Assembly (NCBI GenBank): GCA_963665815.1
Contig: OY762463.1
Location: 1,045,469-1,109,468, forward strand
From: Candidatus Cloacimonadales bacterium
Lineage (GTDB): Bacteria; Cloacimonadota; Cloacimonadia; Cloacimonadales; JAIOQZ01
Length of the DNA stretch: 64,000 bases
Direction of reading: 5' to 3'
Below are positions 6,240-39,863 of the stretch, piece by piece. Made by a program: the position numbers and the translations under genes. A model generated the notes under the pieces. That model worked only from the letters and a program-made list of their open reading frames with translations. It had not been told where the DNA came from and ran no database searches. Positions within the stretch are counted from its first letter, which is position 1. Every line of letters starts with the position of its first letter.

Positions 6240-7201
6240 ATGCAATGGATTACATCCAAATGGATTAATGAACCAATCAAAGTGTTTTACAGACTTGGTA
6301 TCCCTGATTTTTTAGGCAATACTTCTATGACTCTAGAGGAATTATCACTGTTGACACAAACGATTCCAGAAAAACTGATCAGACTATTGCGAGTCCTTGA
6401 ATCAGTAAAAATTGTAAGTGTAACTGATAATGATATCAGTCTGACAGAAACAGGTAGTTTGTTTCAAAAAAAACAACTTGGCTGTATTGCCGGTATGATA
6501 TTTTCAGACTGGCATGATTCTGCCTGATCACGATTAGATGACTGTCTTAAGTCAAATGAAAATGGTTTTGAGTTAGCTCACAATTCTGAAGCATTCGACT
6601 GGCTTTCTAAGCATCCGGAGTATATGCAACAATATAATTCAGCCAATAGGATGAAATCACAAATGATTAGCCATATCTATTGGAGAATTATGACTTCTCA
6701 ACTACGACATCTATTGTTGATATCGGAGGAGGAAATGGAGGAATATCAATTACTTTAAAGAATATTTTTCCAGAGCTTGAAGTAGTTCTGACTGATTCCG
6801 AAACTGTGATATCACATCTTGCGTCTGATATTCACTTTCAGGAGTCCTCAATCGTTCTCGAAGCTTGTAATTTCTTTGAATCAGTCCCGTTCATATCCGA
6901 TAAAGCCCTGTTATCAAACATTCTTCATGACTGGGATGATGAAAGATGTGCTGAAATTCTTAAGATTCTTAAGGATAACTCTGCTGCATCCAACAAAATC
7001 CTGATTATGGAATATCTTGTACCTGAAGATTCATCTTTCAATGTGAGTAAATTGCTTGATATTGAGATGATGGTAATGGGAAGCGGTAAAGAAAGAACGC
7101 TATCTGAATATGAAAATTTGTTTGCTCAATGTAAATTTAAAATATCCAACCTGATCAAAACAAAATCTGGATTATCAATCATTGAAATTTCACACAGCTG
7201 A
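6240..7201 (+). pseudogene. class I SAM-dependent O-methyltransferase (Methyltransf_2-like), disrupted by an in-frame TGA and a frameshift
   Basis: Three collinear pieces of one OMT. Piece 1 is the N-terminal winged-helix/dimerisation part (6240-6524). TGA at 6525-6527 interrupts ..DWHDSA*SRLDDCLKSNENGFELAHNSEAFDWLSKHPEYMQQYNSANRMKSQMISHI, which continues in the same frame. A 1-nt frame change near 6670-6680 is then needed to reach LENYDFSTTTSIVDIGGGNGG (SAM motif I) and the rest of the fold (6680-7201). Confidence 0.7.
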
Positions 7202-8100: not shown

Positions 8101-8949
8101 GTGTTATACTTATTATTAGTGTCCTTTACTTGGGCTTTTTCTTTCGGTTTAATCAAAGGTATCCTAACCGGTGTTAACCCGATTCTCGTTTCATTCATCA
8201 GACTCAGCATTTCTCTGGTGATTTTCATGCCTTTCCTCAGGATTTCAAAACTAAACTTCAGGCAAATGAAGAGTCTATTCCTCATTGGAGCAGTGCAATT
8301 TGGAGTAATGTATGTTTCTTACATATCTGCATACAAGTACTTGCTTGCCTGGCAGATTGCTCTTTTCACGATTTTTACACCGATTTACGTAACAATTATT
8401 AACGATTTATATAAAAAGAAATTTTCTATTATCCCGCTTTTCGCTGCAATACTATCAATTGTTGGAACGCTGATTATTATGTTTAAAACAGGCGAACCTG
8501 GACCATTCCTTAAAGGTTTTACTCTTGTGCAAATATCTAATATCAGCTTTGCCTGGGGACAGATTGCTTATAAAAAAATGAATTTTCCTGTAAATTTCAA
8601 GCAGGTTAATGCATTTGCCATATCCTATCTTGGAGCAGTAGTTCTGACAGGTATTTCTGCAGCACTTACAGTTGATTTCTCTGTAGTAGCATTCACTGCA
8701 AAACAAGTTTATACATTAATCTATCTCGGTGCAATAGCTTCTGGAATCTGTTTCTTCCTCTGGAACTATGGAGCAAAGAAAACAAGTGCAGGCTTACTTG
8801 CAGTAATGAATAACCTGAAGATACCTTTGGCTGTAGTCTGCTCACTACTTTTCTGGCATGAACAGGCAAACATTACAAGACTTGCACTTGGCTCTGTTGT
8901 CATCGTAGCTGCTATGATGCTGAACAAATTTAAACGTAAATCACTATAA
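8101..8949 (+). CDS. EamA/DMT-family transporter
   Basis: GTG start lies 4 nt after AGGAGA (8091-8096). About ten TM helices in two EamA-like halves. Confidence 0.75.
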   Translation: MLYLLLVSFTWAFSFGLIKGILTGVNPILVSFIRLSISLVIFMPFLRISKLNFRQMKSLFLIGAVQFGVMYVSYISAYKYLLAWQIALFTIFTPIYVTIINDLYKKKFSIIPLFAAILSIVGTLIIMFKTGEPGPFLKGFTLVQISNISFAWGQIAYKKMNFPVNFKQVNAFAISYLGAVVLTGISAALTVDFSVVAFTAKQVYTLIYLGAIASGICFFLWNYGAKKTSAGLLAVMNNLKIPLAVVCSLLFWHEQANITRLALGSVVIVAAMMLNKFKRKSL

Positions 8950-9060
8950 TCATTTTGATATAAGACATTAAGAAAGGCTGTCCTGTGGGCAGCCTGTTTC
9001 ACTCTCACAAAGAACGATCCCCAGACAACTATAGCAGCAATTATCAGCAACCCGGTGAAC

Positions 9061-9336
9061 AATTTTCTTGACCATTTTCCACTCATGAGCTCAATTTAGT
9101 CATAATATGGAGTAAGGAGACAGGATTGTACGTAGGTAACACAGCTTTAGTTGTCCAGGAAGACCACTACTACCCGTTCGGAATTAGGTTAGTCGGAATG
9201 TCCACCGATACCGGGCAGAATAATAAATTCCTTTACAACAATAAGGAATACGAAAATGAAAATAAGGTACCTCCTATGGTCTTCGAACTGACGTTCTACA
9301 GACTTCGGAGTGGAGACTCTCGCCTACGGCTACGAG
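9061..9336 (+). repeat. 276-bp dispersed direct repeat, copy 1 (cassette head: non-coding leader + SD + TTG + RHS-core-like 5' coding part)
   Basis: Collinear without indels with 12125-12400 at a constant offset of 3064 nt. The match runs from AATTTTCTTGACC.. through ..AATATGGAGTAAGGAGACAGGATTGTA.. to ..CGGCTACGAG, with scattered substitutions. Confidence 0.9.
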
Positions 9337-10055
9337 CTCATTTTTGGAGACTTTCGGGCTATGCCCTGCAAGCTCATTGCTGGATGGCAGTTGATCCAGC
9401 TGATGAGTTTTTTAGCCCTGAAGGTGTCTCTTATGGTTCTCGGATCGGAATCCTACGAACTTCAGAGACGAGACTCTCGCCTTCGGCTACGAGCTTATAT
9501 AATGACCCGGTGAACTTCCTTGATCCGGATGGGGCGGAGCAAACTCCAGCTTACTTAGTTGTAGATATAATGTTGGACTATGTTGAATTAGATGGGAAAC
9601 TAAGTAACTCAGGCGTAATAGCAAAACTAAATGAAGCTGCATCTATTGCAGAGGGTAGATTCAATAGACATAATCCAAATGATTCAGACATACTAAAGGC
9701 AAAATATCTGCATGACGGTAAATTTTTAAGAAGTTGTGCAACAATATCTTCTTCTAACAGTACTATAAAAGGGATAGATACTGGAAAAAAAATAACAGTA
9801 GGAGCTGGGGCTCTTGCAGTCGGAGGAGTCGGTATAAATGCAGCACGAATGGGGGCAAAGCATATGGCACAGCCTTTACTGAATGGTACATATGATCTTA
9901 TGGCTGGAGGAACTGATGTTCTAAGTTTGGGTACAACACTTTTTATAGAAACTCCTCATGTTGACCACAAGGCAATTAAGAAAGATTGGAACTTAAGATA
10001 TAAATATCAAGATTATGACAGAGGAGATGATGGATATGATTTTAATGAACTTTGA
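9126..10055 (+). CDS. orphan RHS-repeat-associated-core C-terminal fragment with variable toxin-like tip
   Basis: TTG start lies 6 nt after AAGGAG. The N-terminus LYVGNTALVVQEDHYYPFG..FLYNNKEYENE, then WMAVDPADEF and YNDPVNFLDPDG, match the end of RHS/YD core domains. About 180 unrelated C-terminal residues follow, containing a glycine-zipper-like stretch (VGAGALAVGGVGINAARMGA). In-frame stops lie upstream and no long YD-repeat body is present. The middle of the core region is occupied by GC-rich repeat elements, so the gene may be partly degenerate. Confidence 0.65.
   Translation: MYVGNTALVVQEDHYYPFGIRLVGMSTDTGQNNKFLYNNKEYENENKVPPMVFELTFYRLRSGDSRLRLRAHFWRLSGYALQAHCWMAVDPADEFFSPEGVSYGSRIGILRTSETRLSPSATSLYNDPVNFLDPDGAEQTPAYLVVDIMLDYVELDGKLSNSGVIAKLNEAASIAEGRFNRHNPNDSDILKAKYLHDGKFLRSCATISSSNSTIKGIDTGKKITVGAGALAVGGVGINAARMGAKHMAQPLLNGTYDLMAGGTDVLSLGTTLFIETPHVDHKAIKKDWNLRYKYQDYDRGDDGYDFNEL
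9296..9341 (+). repeat. GC-rich 46-nt element, copy A (a degenerate half-copy follows at 9345-9378)
   Basis: CTACAGACTTCGGAGTGGAGACTCTCGCCTACGGCTACGAGCTCAT. By hand alignment 39/46 positions are identical to copy B. It is followed by TGGAGACTTTCGGGCTATGCCCTGCAAGCTCATT, which repeats its right half in degenerate form. The element is much more GC-rich than the surrounding sequence. Confidence 0.8.
9453..9498 (+). repeat. GC-rich 46-nt element, copy B
   Basis: CTACGAACTTCAGAGACGAGACTCTCGCCTTCGGCTACGAGCTTAT. It sits in a different codon phase of the same ORF than copy A (copy A starts at phase 2, copy B at phase 0). The similarity is therefore at nucleotide level, not protein level. Confidence 0.8.
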
Positions 10056-10085
10056 AAGTTCAATAAATAACAAAAGGAAATATCA

Positions 10086-10979
10086 ATGAGGTACTTACTG
10101 ATTACTATAGTACTTTTTATAGGTACATTTACTCTATATAGTGTTGAACTATTATCCGTTGAACAGTTAAATGAATTTGCGGATTCAATTCGTAGTAAGA
10201 TGGTAGCAAATGATTTTACTGGAATCTGTATGATGGAAAAAGGAATGAGAAACTTTATAACAAATACAGATCAATTATATATGAAGTATGAATCCTTTGA
10301 TGTTCTTGCAAAGTCATTTATCTTGATCAATGAATATAGTAAAGCTAAACAATGCTATAGCGACATAACAAAAATACTATCAGTCACTCAAAATACAGTT
10401 TACTGTAAATATTGGGTAATTGCTAAATTCAAAACAATAATTGCAAATAAAAAGCTTAGTTTTGAAGAAAAGATGAAGGAATTAGAAAGATTTAGAGTTT
10501 CTGATTTTAAGAATCTTAATGTGACATGCTATTATGAAGTTTTAAGTTATATGTTAACTGGATCAAAAATACGAAAGCAATATTTTCTTGACTTGTTTAA
10601 AGACCGAGTCGTTTCTAATGATATCAAAATCAATTTTATGATTTTCTTATCAATAATTGAAATAGATGAAGAAAATAATGATGAATCAATGAAATATTTG
10701 AAAAGAGCAGAAAAATTAATACCAACGATTACAAATTTCAGGAATATATTAGAAATGCAACTCAATTTGGCAAAAACCTTGTTATATGATAGACAACAGA
10801 ATATTGCAGAAAGCAACAAGTATTTATCCAAAGCTATTCAAATTAAATCCTCAATTTCTAACCTAGATAGTATCAATATCTTTAGTTTAATGAAATTTGA
10901 CAACATGATTCCTTATCCTGATAATGTGATAAGGCAACTAGAAAGTATTGAGAGGAGGATAAATGAGCAAAAGAATTAA
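10086..10979 (+). CDS. hypothetical secreted/membrane-anchored all-alpha (TPR-like) protein; candidate immunity protein
   Basis: 297 aa with N-terminal hydrophobic segment MRYLLITIVLFIGTFTLYS. The composition is helical-repeat-like. It lies immediately downstream of the RHS-type tip. Function not recognised. Confidence 0.6.
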   Translation: MRYLLITIVLFIGTFTLYSVELLSVEQLNEFADSIRSKMVANDFTGICMMEKGMRNFITNTDQLYMKYESFDVLAKSFILINEYSKAKQCYSDITKILSVTQNTVYCKYWVIAKFKTIIANKKLSFEEKMKELERFRVSDFKNLNVTCYYEVLSYMLTGSKIRKQYFLDLFKDRVVSNDIKINFMIFLSIIEIDEENNDESMKYLKRAEKLIPTITNFRNILEMQLNLAKTLLYDRQQNIAESNKYLSKAIQIKSSISNLDSINIFSLMKFDNMIPYPDNVIRQLESIERRINEQKN

Positions 10980-11913
10980 GATAAATAGTATCCTTCTGTT
11001 GGTTTTATTAACATTTTGTTCAAGATTTTTTGCATTTGAATATGTGAACTATTATCCTTTGAAGCAAAATTTAACACTTGAAGAGAAAGAGGTGGTAGAA
11101 AATTTCTCTTTCTTGATGAAAGACATATTGAACGACAATTTCGCAATCGCTGGAACAAGCTTATCATTCATTTTCAGTCGTAATCAATTAAAAAATAATC
11201 CATTTGTTACAGAAAATCCTAAAGTCATATTAATTCAATTCAGGGTAATTTATAACATAAGAATTGGAAATTATGAATTGGCTAAACTCTTATTTGATGA
11301 AGTTGAAAAGTCCTTCCAAGAGCCTACTAATGATTTATCAAATGAGTTCTTCGAAGAGCTCAAATTGTATAAGTATTCAATTATGGCTAAACTGGAACCA
11401 GATAGTTTAGAATATTATGCGCGAAAAATCATAGATATTGTTACTCCTAAAGATTTATTCTGCTATACATATCGCTTGAACTGGTTATTTGATAATGGCT
11501 ATTACAATGATTTACAGAAGATTGTAAAAAACTCAAATGATACTTTTGATATAATTAGTAACATAAGGTGTCTTTATGAGCAAAAAAAGTATGATGATAT
11601 TGAAAATTTATTTATTCAGTTGAGTCGCAGTCCTCACAAACAAACTCCCGATCTTTTGCTTTATATTAGTTATATTAAATGCCTTATCGCCTTTAATAAG
11701 GGAAAAATCGACAAATCGATAAAGCTTTTAAAGAAGAATCAAAGAATGTTTAATGAGCTTGAAGTTTATATTAAAACTCATAATTTGAGAGAAAGATTTA
11801 TTGATGAAAGTTTAAGAACACTAGTATTTAATTTTGATGGATTGAATTTCACTTTAACAAATGAGCAGATAATGCAACTGTTGACAATCCAAGAAATGAG
11901 TAAATTAGATTAA
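10963..11913 (+). CDS. hypothetical secreted all-alpha (TPR-like) protein, translationally coupled to the previous gene
   Basis: 316 aa with signal-like N-terminus (INSILLLVLLTFCSRFFA). It overlaps the upstream gene by 17 nt. The composition is helical-repeat-like. Function not recognised. Confidence 0.6.
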   Translation: MSKRIKINSILLLVLLTFCSRFFAFEYVNYYPLKQNLTLEEKEVVENFSFLMKDILNDNFAIAGTSLSFIFSRNQLKNNPFVTENPKVILIQFRVIYNIRIGNYELAKLLFDEVEKSFQEPTNDLSNEFFEELKLYKYSIMAKLEPDSLEYYARKIIDIVTPKDLFCYTYRLNWLFDNGYYNDLQKIVKNSNDTFDIISNIRCLYEQKKYDDIENLFIQLSRSPHKQTPDLLLYISYIKCLIAFNKGKIDKSIKLLKKNQRMFNELEVYIKTHNLRERFIDESLRTLVFNFDGLNFTLTNEQIMQLLTIQEMSKLD

Positions 11914-11930
11914 CTTTTTTATATTGAAAA

Positions 11931-11955
11931 GCCAGAACTCGTTTTCTGGCTTTTT
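11931..11955 (+). terminator. rho-independent terminator
   Basis: GCCAGAA-ctcgtt-TTCTGGC followed by TTTTT, 18 nt after the stop at 11913. Confidence 0.8.
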
Positions 11956-12124
11956 CTGTCTGAACCATGATTCTCTTGATTTATATGATTGAAGGATTGC
12001 AAGGATAAACACCTTCGGAATGGTTAAAGACCTTCCGAATGGTGTGACAAACTGCTATCTTTTTTTTGAAATCAACTGTGCAGTCCTGTAATACGCGTAG
12101 AGGCAACCGGACGGTTGACTCAAT

Positions 12125-12400
12125 AATTTTCTTGACCATTTGCCACTACTGAGCTCAATTTAGCCTTAATATGGAGTAAGGAGACAGGATTGTATCTGGG
12201 AAACACAGCTTTAGTAGTACAGGAAGACCATTACTATCCATTTGGGCAACGTTTGAATGGGCTTTCCATGGCAAGTGCAAATCCTAATAACTTTCTTTAC
12301 AATGGGAAGGAATTTGAAGATGAGAATAATGTACCTCCTATGGTCTTCGAACTGACGTTCTACAGACTTCGGAGTGGAGACTCTCGCCTGCGGCTACGAG
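12125..12400 (+). repeat. 276-bp dispersed direct repeat, copy 2
   Basis: Matches 9061-9336. Homology stops exactly at ..CGGCTACGAG (12400), the right end of the GC-rich element. Confidence 0.9.
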
Positions 12401-12408
12401 ATTATTAG
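12190..12408 (+). pseudogene. truncated second copy of the RHS-core-like cassette head (no toxin tip)
   Basis: It has the same SD and TTG start. LYLGNTALVVQEDHYYPFGQRLNG..FLYNGKEFEDENNVPPMVFELTFYRLRSGDSRLRLR is then followed by a stop 3 codons after the repeat ends. The WxxVDP and DPDG motifs and any tip are missing. Confidence 0.7.
12360..12405 (+). repeat. GC-rich 46-nt element, copy C
   Basis: CTACAGACTTCGGAGTGGAGACTCTCGCCTGCGGCTACGAGATTAT. Nearly identical to copy A up to CGGCTACGAG, after which the flanks diverge completely. Confidence 0.8.
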
Positions 12409-12626
12409 TAAAGAAATTATCTTTCACCTGCACAATAATAGAATCAGGTTCAATGCTGTAAATAAGCCCAAATTCTGCCTGTTCATCCTGACTTAGCACC
12501 ATGGATTTACCTTTAAACTCCAGTATCAAGGTTTTACCTATAACACCGGTTATGTTTATTTCTGGTCGATGGACAATGGGCTATGAGCAAAGTCGTCGCA
12601 TATACTTTTAACACCATTTGCAAATC

Positions 12627-12653
12627 AAAAAGGCCCCGAGAATTCCCAGAGCC
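12627..12653 (-). terminator. repeat copy of the same terminator (array unit 1)
   Basis: Identical hairpin followed by UUUUUGAUUU on the minus strand. Confidence 0.7.
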
Positions 12654-12813
12654 TGTAAAGTTAGTTGGATGTCAAATGCGACGAAATCCCGACCTATTTG
12701 AAAAGGTCCTTCAGCAGTTTTTCTGCTTCTTTTTCGACTTTCTTGCCAACAAAAGAAAGTCTTTTCCCTTAAATCAAAGTTGTCGCATTATCTATAGTGA
12801 TGAACATTTCAAT

Positions 12814-12842
12814 AAAAAAAGGCCCCGAGAATTCCCAGAGCC
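12814..12842 (-). terminator. repeat copy of the same terminator (array unit 2)
   Basis: Identical hairpin followed by a run of 7 U on the minus strand. Confidence 0.7.
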
Positions 12843-13005
12843 TGTAAAGTTAGTTGGATGTCAAATGCGACGAAATCTCGACCTATTTGAAAAGGTCCTT
12901 CAGCAGTTTTTCTGCTTCTTTTTCGACTTTCTTTCCGGCAAAAAGAAAGTCTTTTTACCTTTTTGGGGTAGTTGTCGCATTATCTATAGTGATGAACATT
13001 TCAAT

Positions 13006-13034
13006 AAAAAAAGGCCCCGAGAATTCCCAGAGCC
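13006..13034 (-). terminator. repeat copy of the same terminator (array unit 3)
   Basis: Identical hairpin followed by a run of 7 U on the minus strand. Confidence 0.7.
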
Positions 13035-13196
13035 TGTAAAGTTAGTTGGATGTCAAATGCGACGAAATCTCGACCTATTTGAAAAGGTCCTTCAGCAGTT
13101 TTTCTGCTTCTTTTTCGACTTTCTTTCCGGCAAAAAGAAAGTCTTTTTACCTTTTTGGGGTAGTTGTCGCATTATCTATAGTGATGAACATTTCAA

Positions 13197-13226
13197 TAAG
13201 AAAAGGCCCCGAGAATTCCCAGAGCC
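13197..13226 (-). terminator. native rho-independent terminator of gene 13267..15135
   Basis: Minus-strand RNA reads GGCUCUGGG-aauu-CUCGGGGCC, a 9-bp stem including three G-U pairs, followed by UUUUCUUAUU. On the plus strand the same positions are C-A mismatches, so the terminator is strand-specific. Confidence 0.8.
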
Positions 13227-13266
13227 TGTAAAGTTAGTTGGATGTCAAATGCGACGAAATCTCGAC

Positions 13267-15135
13267 CTATTTGAAAAGGTCTTTCAGCAGTTTCTCTGCT
13301 TCTTTTTCGACTTTCTTTCCGGCTTTATCTTTTTCCTTATCGATTTTGCCTTGAACTTCATTTTGTTTACCTTTGACCTTAGCTAATTGCTTATCGATCT
13401 TGCTTTGCATTTTTTTCATTTCAGAATCAAGCCTTGCTTTCTGTTTGTTTATCTGGTCATCAAGTTGTTTCTTGTACTTGGCAACTTCTTTATCAACCTT
13501 CTTACGCAATTCTTGTTTAGCTCGATCTACTTCTGCACTGAGTGCTTTTTTCATTTCTCTTGCAATCAGATTATCGAGATTACTATTCAAGTCGAATGAG
13601 TAATCAGAATCTTTCTGGCTGATTTTTGCATCAAAAGTAATAACATTTATTGCCTGAGTAATCCTCTTTGCAATTCTCAGGAGATGTTTGTTAAGCTTCT
13701 TTGAGTACACATCTGAAAACCTGAGTTTGTCTCCCTTAAAACCTACACTTGAAACAAAGTCACTGTTAAGAATATCAATCTCTGAGCTGAATGTTGCTTG
13801 TCCTGATTCCAGTTTTTCAGGTAACAAGACAAAATTGGAAAGTTTTGTTCCGTTAAGTGGTATTTCACTAGCAACAATTTTTACGTTCTCGTGGAATTGC
13901 TCATTTCTGTGGTCCAGAGTAGCATCTATGCTTGCTTTGAACAATCCGGCTCTGCTTCCGCTTAATTTTGCAGTAATCGGAGTATTAATTCTGTCCTGAT
14001 CAGATGAGATATTGAATATCTGTCCTTTAATTTTGAGCCCGTCACCTGCTTCACCGGAAAGAGTAATTTCTTTCAGCCAGAAGTTTGGTAATTCAGGATA
14101 TTTTTCTGCTTTGGGTTCTGCTTCTACAGCTTCAGGTTTATCCTGTTTGATTTCTCTCGACATCTGTATGTATCCTATAGCCATCATTAAACCATCTGAA
14201 AGTCTGTCTCCAAACAGCATTTTTGCAATATCTTCAACATTTGATGAAGGTAGGTTAGCAATATTCAATGCTTTGTTATAATCCGCTTTAACCCACTTAG
14301 GAACATCTTTTCTGAGACCATTAAGAAGCTTCATATCTTTAGAGAAATTCTTTTTAACCTCTTTAGCTTCTTTAAACAGTTTCTGAGATTTATCATAAGC
14401 AAATTTAGCATTATCCAGAGCTTTCAATAACTCATCAAGCTTCTTCAAATTATTAACATCTATTGCACTGATCTTTTTCTCAATTTCTTTATAATCTTTT
14501 TCATAAGTATTGTTTTTGAATTTATCATCCCAATATGCGTAACGTTCATCTGCAATTTTCTTAAGTGAATCAATTTTAGCAGGTGTCTGAAGTTCGAGAA
14601 GAGCGAATACGGAATCAACATCGATATTTGCCTTAAGTGAAGCAGGATCAAATACAGGAATCTTATCCTTTTCTTCCATGATCTTTGCTTTGATCTTTTC
14701 AGTTACCATTTTAGCTACTTTGCTCTGTCCTTTTTTCTTCTTTTTAGGATCAGGCTCAATATAACCATCTTCCGCTCTGACAGTATTCATTTTAAAGTTT
14801 ACTAACTGTACTTTATTCATGACAACTTTCTTTGCCAGCAGAGGTTTAATCTCCATATTAATTTCTGTTCGACCAAATTCAAACAGGTTTTTCTTTGTAT
14901 TGTCCTTATCAGTCATCTGGAATCTGTTCCAGGACAATGTTCCTTCGAATGGTTCAAACTTGAGACTGTCAACATTGAGTTGAGCTCCATAGATTTTGGA
15001 ACCTTTCCCTTCAATAAAATTTGTAAGTATATTATTTCTGAAGTGATAAACTCCAAATAATCCACCTGCAAAAATTATAAGAAATATAAGTAATCCAAGA
15101 AAAAACTTACCAAATTTCTTAAAGAATTTCTTCAT
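13267..15135 (-). CDS. membrane-anchored envelope protein with Lys/Glu-rich coiled-coil tail (AsmA/DUF748-like; family uncertain)
   Basis: 622-aa ORF with N-terminal TM anchor FFLGLLIFLIIFAGGLFGVY. A long mixed alpha/beta region is followed by a C-terminal coiled coil (..KQELRKKVDKEVAKYKKQLDDQINKQKARLDSEMKK..). Confidence 0.7.
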   Translation of the reverse strand: MKKFFKKFGKFFLGLLIFLIIFAGGLFGVYHFRNNILTNFIEGKGSKIYGAQLNVDSLKFEPFEGTLSWNRFQMTDKDNTKKNLFEFGRTEINMEIKPLLAKKVVMNKVQLVNFKMNTVRAEDGYIEPDPKKKKKGQSKVAKMVTEKIKAKIMEEKDKIPVFDPASLKANIDVDSVFALLELQTPAKIDSLKKIADERYAYWDDKFKNNTYEKDYKEIEKKISAIDVNNLKKLDELLKALDNAKFAYDKSQKLFKEAKEVKKNFSKDMKLLNGLRKDVPKWVKADYNKALNIANLPSSNVEDIAKMLFGDRLSDGLMMAIGYIQMSREIKQDKPEAVEAEPKAEKYPELPNFWLKEITLSGEAGDGLKIKGQIFNISSDQDRINTPITAKLSGSRAGLFKASIDATLDHRNEQFHENVKIVASEIPLNGTKLSNFVLLPEKLESGQATFSSEIDILNSDFVSSVGFKGDKLRFSDVYSKKLNKHLLRIAKRITQAINVITFDAKISQKDSDYSFDLNSNLDNLIAREMKKALSAEVDRAKQELRKKVDKEVAKYKKQLDDQINKQKARLDSEMKKMQSKIDKQLAKVKGKQNEVQGKIDKEKDKAGKKVEKEAEKLLKDLFK

Positions 15136-37787: not shown

Positions 37788-38459
37788 CTACTCCCCATAC
37801 TGAATATCTATAGTCATACTTTCAGTACTGGTGTAATTAACTTCTTCTGATATTACTTGGCCATGGAGTTCGGAAAAGGCATAAATATTGAATTTTCCAG
37901 TTAAATCACCATGCTCCATATCACTTCTCATTGGATTGTTCAGCATAATCTGAGAATCAGAGATTGAGAACTTCCCGTTTTCATCAGTTTTGTCATAGTA
38001 TGTGAATTGAGTGAAGTTGTCAAAACCAACGGTACAATATATAGCAGGCACTGCAATTGTTAATGTATCACTACTTTCAACAGATCTCATGTTAACCTTA
38101 TAGAAATCTGTCTTTACATACTTATCGCTTTCATTGGTTCCATCCCAGCTCACAGCGTGATACCCGGCCTCCTGATTTTCGCTTAAAAGCACCTTAACAG
38201 TATCAGAAATATTCTCTGTTGATATCCAGATTTTCGTATATCCAGCATCATGGAGGGAATAGTGGATGCTTGTAGTTGGTCTCTCTGGGGCATCAGTATT
38301 TTCATAAACGTAATCTATCCCGACATATGCATTTGTAACAGGTTGTCCGTCTGCATCAGTAATCTGACCTTTAACGTATTTAGTATCACTGCTTGTTGAA
38401 TTGCAACTGCAAAGCAATAAAGAACAAAGTATAATCAATATCATCTGTGAGTATCTCAT
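37788..38459 (-). CDS. lipoprotein, tandem paralog A (CarboxypepD_reg-like + FlgD-Ig-like)
   Basis: 223 aa with lipobox LLLCSC. VKGQITDADGQPVTNAYVGI (carboxypeptidase-regulatory-like). GYHAVSWDGTNESDKYV (FlgD-Ig-like). Confidence 0.8.
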   Translation of the reverse strand: MRYSQMILIILCSLLLCSCNSTSSDTKYVKGQITDADGQPVTNAYVGIDYVYENTDAPERPTTSIHYSLHDAGYTKIWISTENISDTVKVLLSENQEAGYHAVSWDGTNESDKYVKTDFYKVNMRSVESSDTLTIAVPAIYCTVGFDNFTQFTYYDKTDENGKFSISDSQIMLNNPMRSDMEHGDLTGKFNIYAFSELHGQVISEEVNYTSTESMTIDIQYGE

Positions 38460-38483
38460 TTATTCCCCTTAAAGTATAATCTT

Positions 38484-39161
38484 TTAATCCTCTTCCCCAT
38501 ACTGAATATCTATAGTCATACTTTCAGTACTGGTGTAATTAACTTCTTCTGATATTACTTGGCCATGGAGTTCGGAAAAGGCATAAATATTGAATTTTCC
38601 AGTTAAATTACCATGCTCCATATCATCTCGCATTGAACTGTTCAGCATAATCTGAGAGTCAGGGATTGAGAACTTCCCGTTTTCATCAGTTTTGTCATAA
38701 TATGTAAATTGAGTAAAATTTTCATTGTTTACATTGCAGTATATGGCTGGTACGGCAATAATAAGTGTATCACTTGTTTCATCTGATCTCATATTAAACT
38801 TATAGAATCCTGTTTTAACATAGTACCCGTCATCATTAGTTGCATCCCATGTTACATAATGATAACCGACATCCATGTTTTCATTAAGAAGCACTTTTAC
38901 AGTATCAGAAATATTTTCTTTTGATATCCAGATCAGTGTTTGTCCTGCTTCCTTTATAGAGAAAGATATATTTGTTGTGGGTCTTCCCAAGTCGTAATCA
39001 GTTTCATATCTATAGTCTATTCCCACATAAGCATTAGCAACAGGCTGTCCGTTTGCATCAGTAATCTGACCTTTAACGTATTTAGTATCACTGCTTGTTG
39101 AATTGCAACTGCAAAGCAATAAAGAACAAAGTATAATCAATATCATCTGTGAGTATCTCAT
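38484..39161 (-). CDS. lipoprotein, tandem paralog B
   Basis: 225 aa. The signal peptide is identical to A. The middle differs (..DYRYETDYDLGRPTTNISFSIKEAGQTLIWISK..NENMDVGYHYVTWDATNDDGYYV..). Confidence 0.8.
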   Translation of the reverse strand: MRYSQMILIILCSLLLCSCNSTSSDTKYVKGQITDANGQPVANAYVGIDYRYETDYDLGRPTTNISFSIKEAGQTLIWISKENISDTVKVLLNENMDVGYHYVTWDATNDDGYYVKTGFYKFNMRSDETSDTLIIAVPAIYCNVNNENFTQFTYYDKTDENGKFSIPDSQIMLNSSMRDDMEHGNLTGKFNIYAFSELHGQVISEEVNYTSTESMTIDIQYGEED

Positions 39162-39185
39162 TTATTCCCCTTAAAGTATAATCTT

Positions 39186-39863
39186 TTAATCCTCTTCCCC
39201 ATACTGAATATCTATAGTCATACTTTCAGTACTGGTGTAATTAACTTCTTCTGATATTACTTGGCCATGGAGTTCGGAAAAGGCATAAATATTGAATTTT
39301 CCAGTTAAATTACCATGCTCCATATCATCTCGCATTGAACTGTTCAGCATAATCTGAGAGTCAGGGATTGAGAACTTCCCGTTTTCATCAGTTTTGTCAT
39401 AATATGTAAATTGAGTAAAATTTTCATTGTTTACATTGCAGTATATGGCTGGTACGGCAATAACAAGTGTATCACTTGATTCATCTGATCTCATATTAAA
39501 CTTATAGAATCCTGTTTTAACATAGTACCCGTCATCATTAGTTGCATCCCATGTTACATAATGATAACCGACATCCATGTTTTCATTAAGAAGCACCTTA
39601 ACAGTATCAGAAATATTCTCTGTTGATATCCAGATTTTTGTATATCCAGCATCATGGAGGGAATAGTGGATGCTTGTAGTTGGTCTCTCTTGGGCATCAG
39701 TATTTTCATAAACGTAATCTATCCCGACATATGCATTTGTAACAGGTTGTCCGTCTGCATCAGTAATCTGACCTTTAACGTATTTAGTATCACTTTGAGT
39801 AAGAAAGCAGCTGCAGAGAGTGAAACATGCTAATATTGATAATAGTAAAAGCGAAAATCTCAT
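39186..39863 (-). CDS. lipoprotein, tandem paralog C (chimera of A-like and B-like segments)
   Basis: 225 aa with its own signal peptide (MRFSLLLLSILACFTLCSC). Residues 24-92 match A with 1 difference. Residues 93-225 match B with 2 differences. Confidence 0.8.
   Translation of the reverse strand: MRFSLLLLSILACFTLCSCFLTQSDTKYVKGQITDADGQPVTNAYVGIDYVYENTDAQERPTTSIHYSLHDAGYTKIWISTENISDTVKVLLNENMDVGYHYVTWDATNDDGYYVKTGFYKFNMRSDESSDTLVIAVPAIYCNVNNENFTQFTYYDKTDENGKFSIPDSQIMLNSSMRDDMEHGNLTGKFNIYAFSELHGQVISEEVNYTSTESMTIDIQYGEED

Follow-up and report, generated by a model that had tools for sequence, protein, structure and literature searches.

A two-hairpin repeat carried in frame by RHS toxin-tip cassettes of a Cloacimonadales lineage

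We analysed a 64,000-nucleotide stretch (hereafter the window) of a Candidatus Cloacimonadales bacterium (contig OY762463.1, positions 1,045,469 to 1,109,468), which carries on its plus strand an open reading frame (ORF, 9126–10055) encoding a stand-alone C-terminal tip of an RHS protein. Inside this ORF lies a repeated 78-nt element composed of two hairpins. Judging from element-free RHS relatives, the element is an insertion; it leaves the reading frame open and is restricted to one lineage, represented by two related Cloacimonadales genomes. On balance, we lean towards a palindromic DNA repeat that is non-autonomous and limited to this lineage, and that RHS linkers of variable length accommodate in frame, in the manner of the palindromic elements of Rickettsia.

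Repeat unit and two-hairpin fold

The original prediction, made from the letters alone, reported two 46-mers (9296–9341 and 9453–9498) that are 39/46 identical and lie in different codon phases, with another copy at 12360–12405 in a second cassette. All of this is accurate: the phases are 2 and 0 of ORF 9126–10055, and the 46-mer of the second cassette is 43/46 identical to the first one. The length of 46 nt, however, falls short, as a repeat finder follows the repeat 32 nt farther 5′ to give a unit of 78 nt. The unit is present on the plus strand as copy 1 (9264–9341), copy 2 (9421–9498) and copy 3 (12328–12405), the last in a truncated second cassette; compared with copy 1, copy 2 has 59/78 identical positions (76%) and copy 3 has 74/78 (95%). 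Copies 1 and 3 belong to subtype A and copy 2 to subtype B, with scores of 106.5, 101.7 and 101.9 bits, respectively, for R1, a covariance model built from the element. A 26-nt core of the unit matches the window three times, against 0.00 matches expected from 100 shuffles. Copy 1 is translated in frame 0 as KVPPMVFELTFYRLRSGDSRLRLRAH, whereas copy 2, which sits in the next codon phase, is translated as (E)GVSYGSRIGILRTSETRLSPSATSL. Since the two copies, in their different frames, give unrelated peptides, the evidence supports a nucleic-acid-level rather than a protein repeat, as had been proposed.

The half-copy previously placed at 9345–9378 is real (9346–9377, plus strand), its identity being that of a variant, GGAGACTTTCGGGCTATGCCCTGCAAGCTCAT, of the 3′ hairpin module of the unit, GGAGACTCTCGCCTACGGCTACGAGCTCAT; this lone module encodes (F)WRLSGYALQAH. 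The GC-rich island described around the copies also exists, with a GC content of 0.506 over 9264–9498 versus 0.349 window-wide. The corresponding element-free RHS stretch in a relative has a GC content of 0.53, so the island comes in part from the RHS core itself and not from the elements alone.

R1 finds three further copies in a related genome, the Cloacimonadales metagenome-assembled genome (MAG) GCA_942492065.1. Two are of subtype A, at L028 12218–12298 and at L028 13750–13827, the latter being the same locus as L010 1597–1674. The third, of subtype B, lies at L029 11293–11369 and is followed by an extra copy of the 3′ hairpin module at ~11375–11405; this AT-decayed copy retains a trace of the RHS 5′ part. 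In the L028 12218–12298 copy, CTAC has become CTAA; the resulting in-frame TAA divides the cassette into called genes for 115 and 213 aa, and the 3′ hairpin of this copy has another, longer apical stem, GGAC-AUAU-GUCC. At the protein level, subtype B is also represented by P0004, P0005 and P0007, three homologues of the window tip, of which P0007 looks like an A/B mosaic.

Copies 1 and 2, which are only 76% identical, share one RNAfold structure. The first hairpin (HP1) is a three-tier hairpin of ~44 nt (unit positions 6–49, ~9269–9312 in copy 1) with conserved internal loops UAU/UC and UC/UAC, and the second (HP2) is a short hairpin of 27–30 nt (unit positions 50–76, ~9313–9339 in copy 1) that is also found by itself. 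Both hairpins have CTAC (GTAG on the opposite strand) in their 3′ internal loop. The HP1 stems of copies 1 and 2 differ at 14 positions, all of which group into seven pairs; five of these change from one Watson–Crick pair to another and two from a mismatch to a pair. Among the six distinct DNA copies, the plus strand pairs in 91.2% of cells, against 21–53% when the 3′ partners are slid by 1–3 columns. Both sides have changed in 9 of the 23 pairs, and neither the observed pairing percentage nor the covariation score was attained in any of 500 shuffles. The lone HP2 at 9346–9377 has an apical stem GGGC/GCCC instead of GCC/GGC and a lower stem CUU/AAG instead of CUC/GAG; in both this module and the L028 12218 HP2, the hairpin persists with changed stems (GGGC/GCCC, GGAC/GUCC, CUU/AAG), and the AT-decayed L029 copy still pairs through G–C to A–U double changes. 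On the minus strand pairing falls to 84.0% of cells. This difference is due to wobble pairs, with ten G.U cells on the plus strand (including the invariant G15.U41) and one on the minus strand, and the pairing thus leans modestly towards the sense strand. The plus-strand folding energies are unremarkable (z −0.1 to −1.3), so that the case for structure rests on the covariation. Template-switch correction in DNA palindromes can mimic covariation without selection. A conserved two-hairpin structure common to all copies is nevertheless well supported, and the earlier statement that no convincing hairpin could be found did not survive the folding and covariation analysis.

The fold does not correspond to a known RNA family, a tRNA-like structure or a ribozyme: an Rfam 15 covariance-model search gave nothing over the elements above noise at E ≤ 10, and ARAGORN reported nothing at the element. 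Sequence inspection disposed of a switch between Shine–Dalgarno and anti-Shine–Dalgarno pairing, as the outer stem CCUCC..GGAG exists in subtype A only and no start codon lies downstream of it. Variation by a diversity-generating retroelement was likewise rejected, the differences between copies not being adenine-specific. A promoter and terminator scan of 8900–12700 detected nothing associated with the elements.

Insertion into the RHS core and distribution

ORF 9126–10055 runs from the end of an RHS core (QEDHYYPFG .. DPDG) into a unique C-terminal domain and contains the motifs QEDHYYPFG, WMAVDP and NDPVNFLDPDG. It starts ~90 codons ahead of DPDG, directly after an EamA transporter gene, and is followed by two TPR-like ORFs. 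It is regarded as an orphan tip because of this late start and the lack of a long N-terminal YD-repeat shell. The element-free tip P0011 matches, over residues 1–96, TcdB2-TccC3 (4o9x, residues 2106–2190, E = 3.6e-10), YenC2 (4igl_B, residues 605–689, 1e-07) and RHS2 (5kis_B), and homology to these solved Tc/RHS proteins thus assigns the host region to the C-terminal end of the RHS shell.

Twelve homologues of the window tip (P0001 to P0012) were found among 5.8 billion proteins, nine of which, including P0001 encoded by the window ORF, come from the window's own 3.96-Mb contig. The element is carried by eight of the twelve and absent from P0009–P0012. Element-free relatives have ..NGKEHEDDFDLNWYHYGVRYYDPQLGRW.. 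in one frame, and P0009–P0012, together with the full-length RHS of the related locus L027, have ..NGKEHEDDFDLNWYHYGVRYYDPQLGRWHAIDPADEFFSPYVYCHNDPVNFLDPDG. The carriers display a full unit, NVPPMVFELTFYRLRSGDSRLRLRA, ahead of (L)WYHYG, or its subtype B version, NVPPMVLGFKSYELRSGDSRLRLRA. Some of them add a lone HP2 module, FWRLSGYALQA(H/R)(C/S), and P0002 has one more module after YDPQLG. Because the element-free relatives read across the site in one frame, the comparison identifies the element as an insertion, in agreement with the original prediction. It lies just upstream of YG.R.YDP..GRW, a stretch that it had been thought to replace; the stretch is in fact intact downstream of the element in P0003, P0008, P0006 and P0002. 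The fuller motif Y.YG.R.YDP..GRW is present in P0002, P0003 and P0005–P0012 and missing from ORF 9126–10055 and P0004, which marks the window ORF as a degenerate RHS member. P0001 and P0004 correspond to P0002 minus 26 codons (78 nt) between two RLSGYALQ modules. A separate, repeat-mediated deletion between two lone HP2 modules would have taken out YHYGVRYYDPQLG, the segment that ORF 9126–10055 is without.

DNA alignment with the empty sites of L027/P0011 defines the insertions at two positions. At site 1, before WYHYG, 78–81 nt were gained and ~9 nt lost (net +69 to +72). At site 3, after FFSP, the copy at 9421 represents a gain of 79 nt and a loss of ~13 nt (net +66), and it stands where the native YVYC(H) codons would be. 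Subtype B is present at both sites; its presence at site 1, like the module after YDPQLG, is known from protein sequences only. The frame is kept in all four separate insertion events and is open through every insertion, each of which would add 12–26 residues when translated, and neither splicing nor ribosomal bypass is needed to read through the element. The number of modules per cassette ranges from 0 to 4, at varying positions, and element-free tips coexist with carriers in the same genomes. Among 79 metagenomic RHS relatives, the linkers vary in length by up to 11 residues at site 1 and up to 5 before SPY, and the inserts therefore sit in loops that tolerate insertions and deletions. An origin by duplication of adjacent native RHS sequence was rejected, local alignments against four native regions being no better than shuffles; the L027 empty site gives a weak covariance-model match of 12 bits, and one global alignment looked significant.

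The distribution is narrow. Searching the core pattern against 185,579 species genomes returned 26 stretches, of which one is real, namely L010 of the Candidatus Cloacimonadales MAG GCA_942492065.1, the remaining 25 being single chance matches in GC-rich genomes. The core pattern gave no match in JGI metagenomes, and the element pattern gave none in viral contigs. A six-frame peptide query of the 5.8 billion proteins and a full HMMER search of 1.84 billion representatives recovered the same eight RHS-tip proteins and no others; seven of the eight belong to the window's genome and the eighth to the Cloacimonadales MAG. R1 gave no match in 343 kb of metagenomic sequence comprising 79 loci that encode related RHS tips, and in the window and related loci (150 kb) all its confident matches fall within tip cassettes. 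The element is therefore restricted to one lineage of two related Cloacimonadales genomes, and every copy found lies in an RHS-tip context. We found no paper in the literature linking hairpin repeats with Rhs orphan cassettes.

Organization and rearrangement of the tip cassettes

The cassettes share a conserved block upstream of the coding sequence (9058–9125, plus strand) that ends with AAGGAG and leads into a TTG start. It is repeated at 12122–12189 with 87% identity and recurs before the tips in L027, L028 and L029 (around 9933–10003). In all orphan tips the block (9058–9128 and 12122–12192 in the window, TTG included) shows AAGGAG, a 6–7-nt spacer and the TTG start. Since every orphan tip has this arrangement, the tips may be translated on their own and not be silent cassettes. 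In the second cassette (12190–12408, plus strand) nothing is left but the 5′ part of the RHS sequence and the element, with stop codons directly after them.

The element is more strongly conserved than its surroundings. Subtype A copies are 95% identical, whether the two cassettes of the window or the window and the MAG are compared; the 5′ coding flank next to the element is 67–77% identical. The longest exact run between the window cassettes (59 nt, 9267–9325) lies within the element and starts three bases past its 5′ end. The homology of the second cassette to the first breaks off precisely at the element's 3′ end, which is joined directly to a 3′ fragment of a small minus-strand gene (12406–12580) through a short microhomology, AG.TTAT. 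The same element/gene-fragment junction is found in L029 with 90.7% identity, the genes farther out being unrelated. A 5′ fragment of the same small gene (8992–9086, minus strand) lies on the opposite flank of the array. The intact gene is present in L027 at 11943–12413, where it adjoins PilO, PilN and secretin genes. Fragments of it flank or separate tip cassettes in three assemblies: the window (8992–9086 and 12399–12580), L027 (9723–9890) and L028 (13384–13501). This arrangement suggests that cassettes were duplicated together with pieces of the small neighbour gene.

The related locus L027 (2991–9602) also carries an element-free, full-length RHS protein of 1360 aa, followed by a gene for a 396-aa putative immunity protein (no Pfam match on record) and an IS256-family transposase. 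Next come the orphan tip P0011 and a 338-aa gene with a faint TPR_2 match.

Several other features of the window are apparent. A tandem repeat of 192 nt (12627–13323, 3.6 copies, 96% identity) comprises, as minus-strand sequence, the final ~19 codons of a DUF748-like gene (13267–15135, minus strand) and a terminator-like hairpin (12654–12631). It appears to be a tandem duplication of the 3′ end of that gene and creates a spurious plus-strand ORF of 267 aa. An O-methyltransferase gene (Methyltransf_2, 6240–7201) is apparently split into ORFs 6240–6527 and 6680–7201, possibly by a frameshift or as a pseudogene. Three tandem ORFs of 223–225 aa occupy 37788–39863 on the minus strand, the first of which (37788–38459, the sole one scanned) contains an Ig-like domain of the FlgD type. 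FlgD_ig/Por_Secre_tail C-termini, typical of type IX secretion cargo, are present in several further proteins of the window.

Nature of the element and relation to known systems

Three meanings had been put forward in the original prediction: a small mobile or repetitive extragenic palindromic (REP)-like element, a recombination site and an RNA element. The first fits best, the case for the second is circumstantial and the third is a live rival. In the reading that we favour, the element would have entered the coding sequence of the last length-variable RHS-core linkers in the ancestor of one Cloacimonadales lineage. It would then have spread, or been homogenised, among stand-alone RHS toxin-tip cassettes. 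At least three more copyings would have taken place within the same 200-nt stretch, giving the lone HP2 beside copy 1, the lone HP2 after YDPQLG and the full subtype-B copy after FFSP. Candidate agents of the copying are a trans-acting, hairpin-recognising enzyme and template switching during repair. The repeated hairpin-forming tract may in addition act as a substrate for rearrangement, as indicated by the breakpoints of the HP2–HP2 deletion and of the cassette truncation right at the element's 3′ end.

Several observations weigh against a mobile palindromic repeat. The junctions are identical in all site-1 copies. A single insertion with subsequent gene conversion over short tracts could therefore explain these copies, and true mobility would not be needed. 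Target-site duplication is not evident at either of the two analysable sites, whose ancestral empty states are deduced from relatives, and the gain of 78 nt at both was accompanied by a loss of ~9–13 nt of target. Clear terminal inverted repeats are lacking as well, the inverted repeat spanning unit positions 6–49 and leaving HP2 outside. No transposase or recombinase was seen among the window ORFs examined (1–38 kb). [quoted passage not shown] Finally, a functional element would explain just as well why the unit is better conserved than its flanks and why the decayed L029 copy has kept its pairing.

Among the other explanations, the one we take most seriously, although we judge it improbable, is that the sense mRNA of the toxin-tip genes contains the element as a functional structure acting in cis, kept by selection on RNA pairing. 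Its role could be to bind a protein just upstream of the toxin domain, to make translation pause, or to signal the stability or processing of the transcript. The covariation behind the fold, the wobble pairs favouring the sense strand (10 versus 1, with 91.2% versus 84.0% pairing), the better conservation of the element than of the flanking coding DNA and the G–C to A–U double changes of the AT-decayed L029 copy all speak for it. So does the sense orientation of all copies, but the antisense strand has stops in all three frames, which accounts for the sense-only orientation, and double changes may come from template-switch correction without selection. Ordinary plus-strand folding energies (z −0.1 to −1.3), the absence of an Rfam match, the limitation of the family to two genomes and the fact that cassettes differ in where the modules lie and in how many they have (0 to 4, with element-free tips in the same genomes) also argue against a dedicated mRNA signal. 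A cassette-exchange site, either a folded attC-like site for a recombinase or the longest tract of perfect identity channelling homologous crossovers, seems to us rather more doubtful. The exact end of the second cassette's homology at the 3′ end of the element, the same junction with foreign DNA in L029 ahead of unrelated sequence, the 59-nt exact run as the longest identity between cassettes, the deletion between lone HP2 modules and a hairpin whose conserved internal loops broadly recall attC are what would be expected of such a site. Yet cassette homology begins ~200 nt upstream of the element (9058), the left edge of the array has no element, the element is within the ORF and not after it, and the ORFs examined include no integrase or recombinase. 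Core sites RYYYAAC/GTTRRRY are absent, GAAC/GTTC occurring only in the inner stem of subtype A and being replaced by GGAU/AUCC in subtype B, and the truncation junction, with the short microhomology AG.TTAT only, is probably a single inherited event.

An ordinary protein segment of an RHS subfamily, repeated through selection on the peptide, would account for NVPPMV..RSGDSRLRLRA, which is found in one frame and at the same place in eight paralogous tips. While these paralogous carriers do encode the same residues in one frame at that site, the element-free relatives and the copy at 9421 do not: the 9421–9498 copy, in another frame, gives an unrelated peptide, paired changes between subtypes A and B alter the peptide (FELTFYR versus LGFKSYE) while the stems stay, and the segment is absent from the element-free relatives, the 79 metagenomic relatives and the solved RHS structures. 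This explanation is already contradicted by the frame difference and the covariation and appears very improbable. An assembly or sequencing artefact can be practically dismissed. Nothing specific points to it except that one source is a MAG, and the copies come from two independent assemblies and three contigs, are diverged and have intact frames. Taken more broadly, the idea that the two-hairpin unit serves polymorphic-toxin cassettes as a dedicated module with a function, whether an attC-like tip-exchange site or a sense-strand RNA element, and is not selfish DNA, strikes us as unlikely.

If the element is indeed a tolerated palindromic repeat, it would be a case, outside Rickettsia, of such a repeat lying in frame in protein genes, with the unusual property of being confined to the RHS core–tip junction, the place of tip exchange. 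It would illustrate the ways in which repeats of this kind can wear away conserved RHS motifs or rewire the cassettes of toxins. Should the hairpins prove functional, RHS tip cassettes would have a first nucleic-acid signal associated with them. As the family is tiny and known from two genomes, its general impact is limited; the element is a modest curiosity and not a new kind of system.

The element can be compared with several known systems. The GC-rich mobile clusters and 'byp' elements of yeast mitochondria are GC-rich, hairpin-forming inserts in the coding sequence of an AT-rich genome; byp elements break the frame and are skipped by ribosomes. The element resembles byp as a GC-rich hairpin insert within the coding sequence of an AT-rich genome, but it differs from byp and from the T4 gene 60 bypass in that the ORF is continuous through both copies of the window ORF, the L028 12218 copy alone having a stop. 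With the attC sites of integrons it shares imperfect hairpins with conserved unpaired bases, the use of one folded strand and arrays of promoter-poor cassettes, and the element forms the end of one such array here. However, attC sites follow the cassette ORF, depend on IntI and possess R″/R′ core motifs, and none of these three was found for the element: no RYYYAAC .. GTTRRRY core site is conserved in the alignment of copies, and the ORFs scanned contain no integrase.

Parallels also exist with REPs and bacterial interspersed mosaic elements (BIMEs), which are mobilised by REP-associated tyrosine transposases (RAYTs, IS200/IS605-like Y1 enzymes), and with the MITE-like ERIC, Correia and BOX families. 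Like these, the element is composed of small imperfect hairpins, forms a subtyped family and acts as a probable substrate for rearrangement, and its strand-specific pairing would fit recognition of one folded DNA strand, as in the REP/RAYT system. REP/BIME, ERIC, Correia and BOX repeats are extragenic, high-copy and genome-wide, whereas the element is intragenic and has few copies; MITEs have terminal inverted repeats and target-site duplications, neither of which is evident here, and the ORFs scanned in the first 38 kb of the window reveal no cognate RAYT or other transposase.

The nearest counterparts are the palindromic elements of Rickettsia, which are documented in frame within protein-coding genes (PMC10969869). 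The likeness concerns behaviour and not a sequence comparison with RPE families. RPEs measure roughly 100–150 bp and number tens of copies, whereas the element is 78 nt long and modular (HP1 + HP2, or HP2 alone); RPEs are scattered in unrelated genes of an alphaproteobacterial genus, whereas the element occurs in RHS tip cassettes of two Cloacimonadales genomes only. The element thus shares with RPEs a palindrome in frame in ORFs but not the dispersal of many copies among unrelated genes. Both are short palindromic repeats within coding genes that leave the frame open, add residues to the product and occupy sites compatible with the protein fold (PMC10969869).

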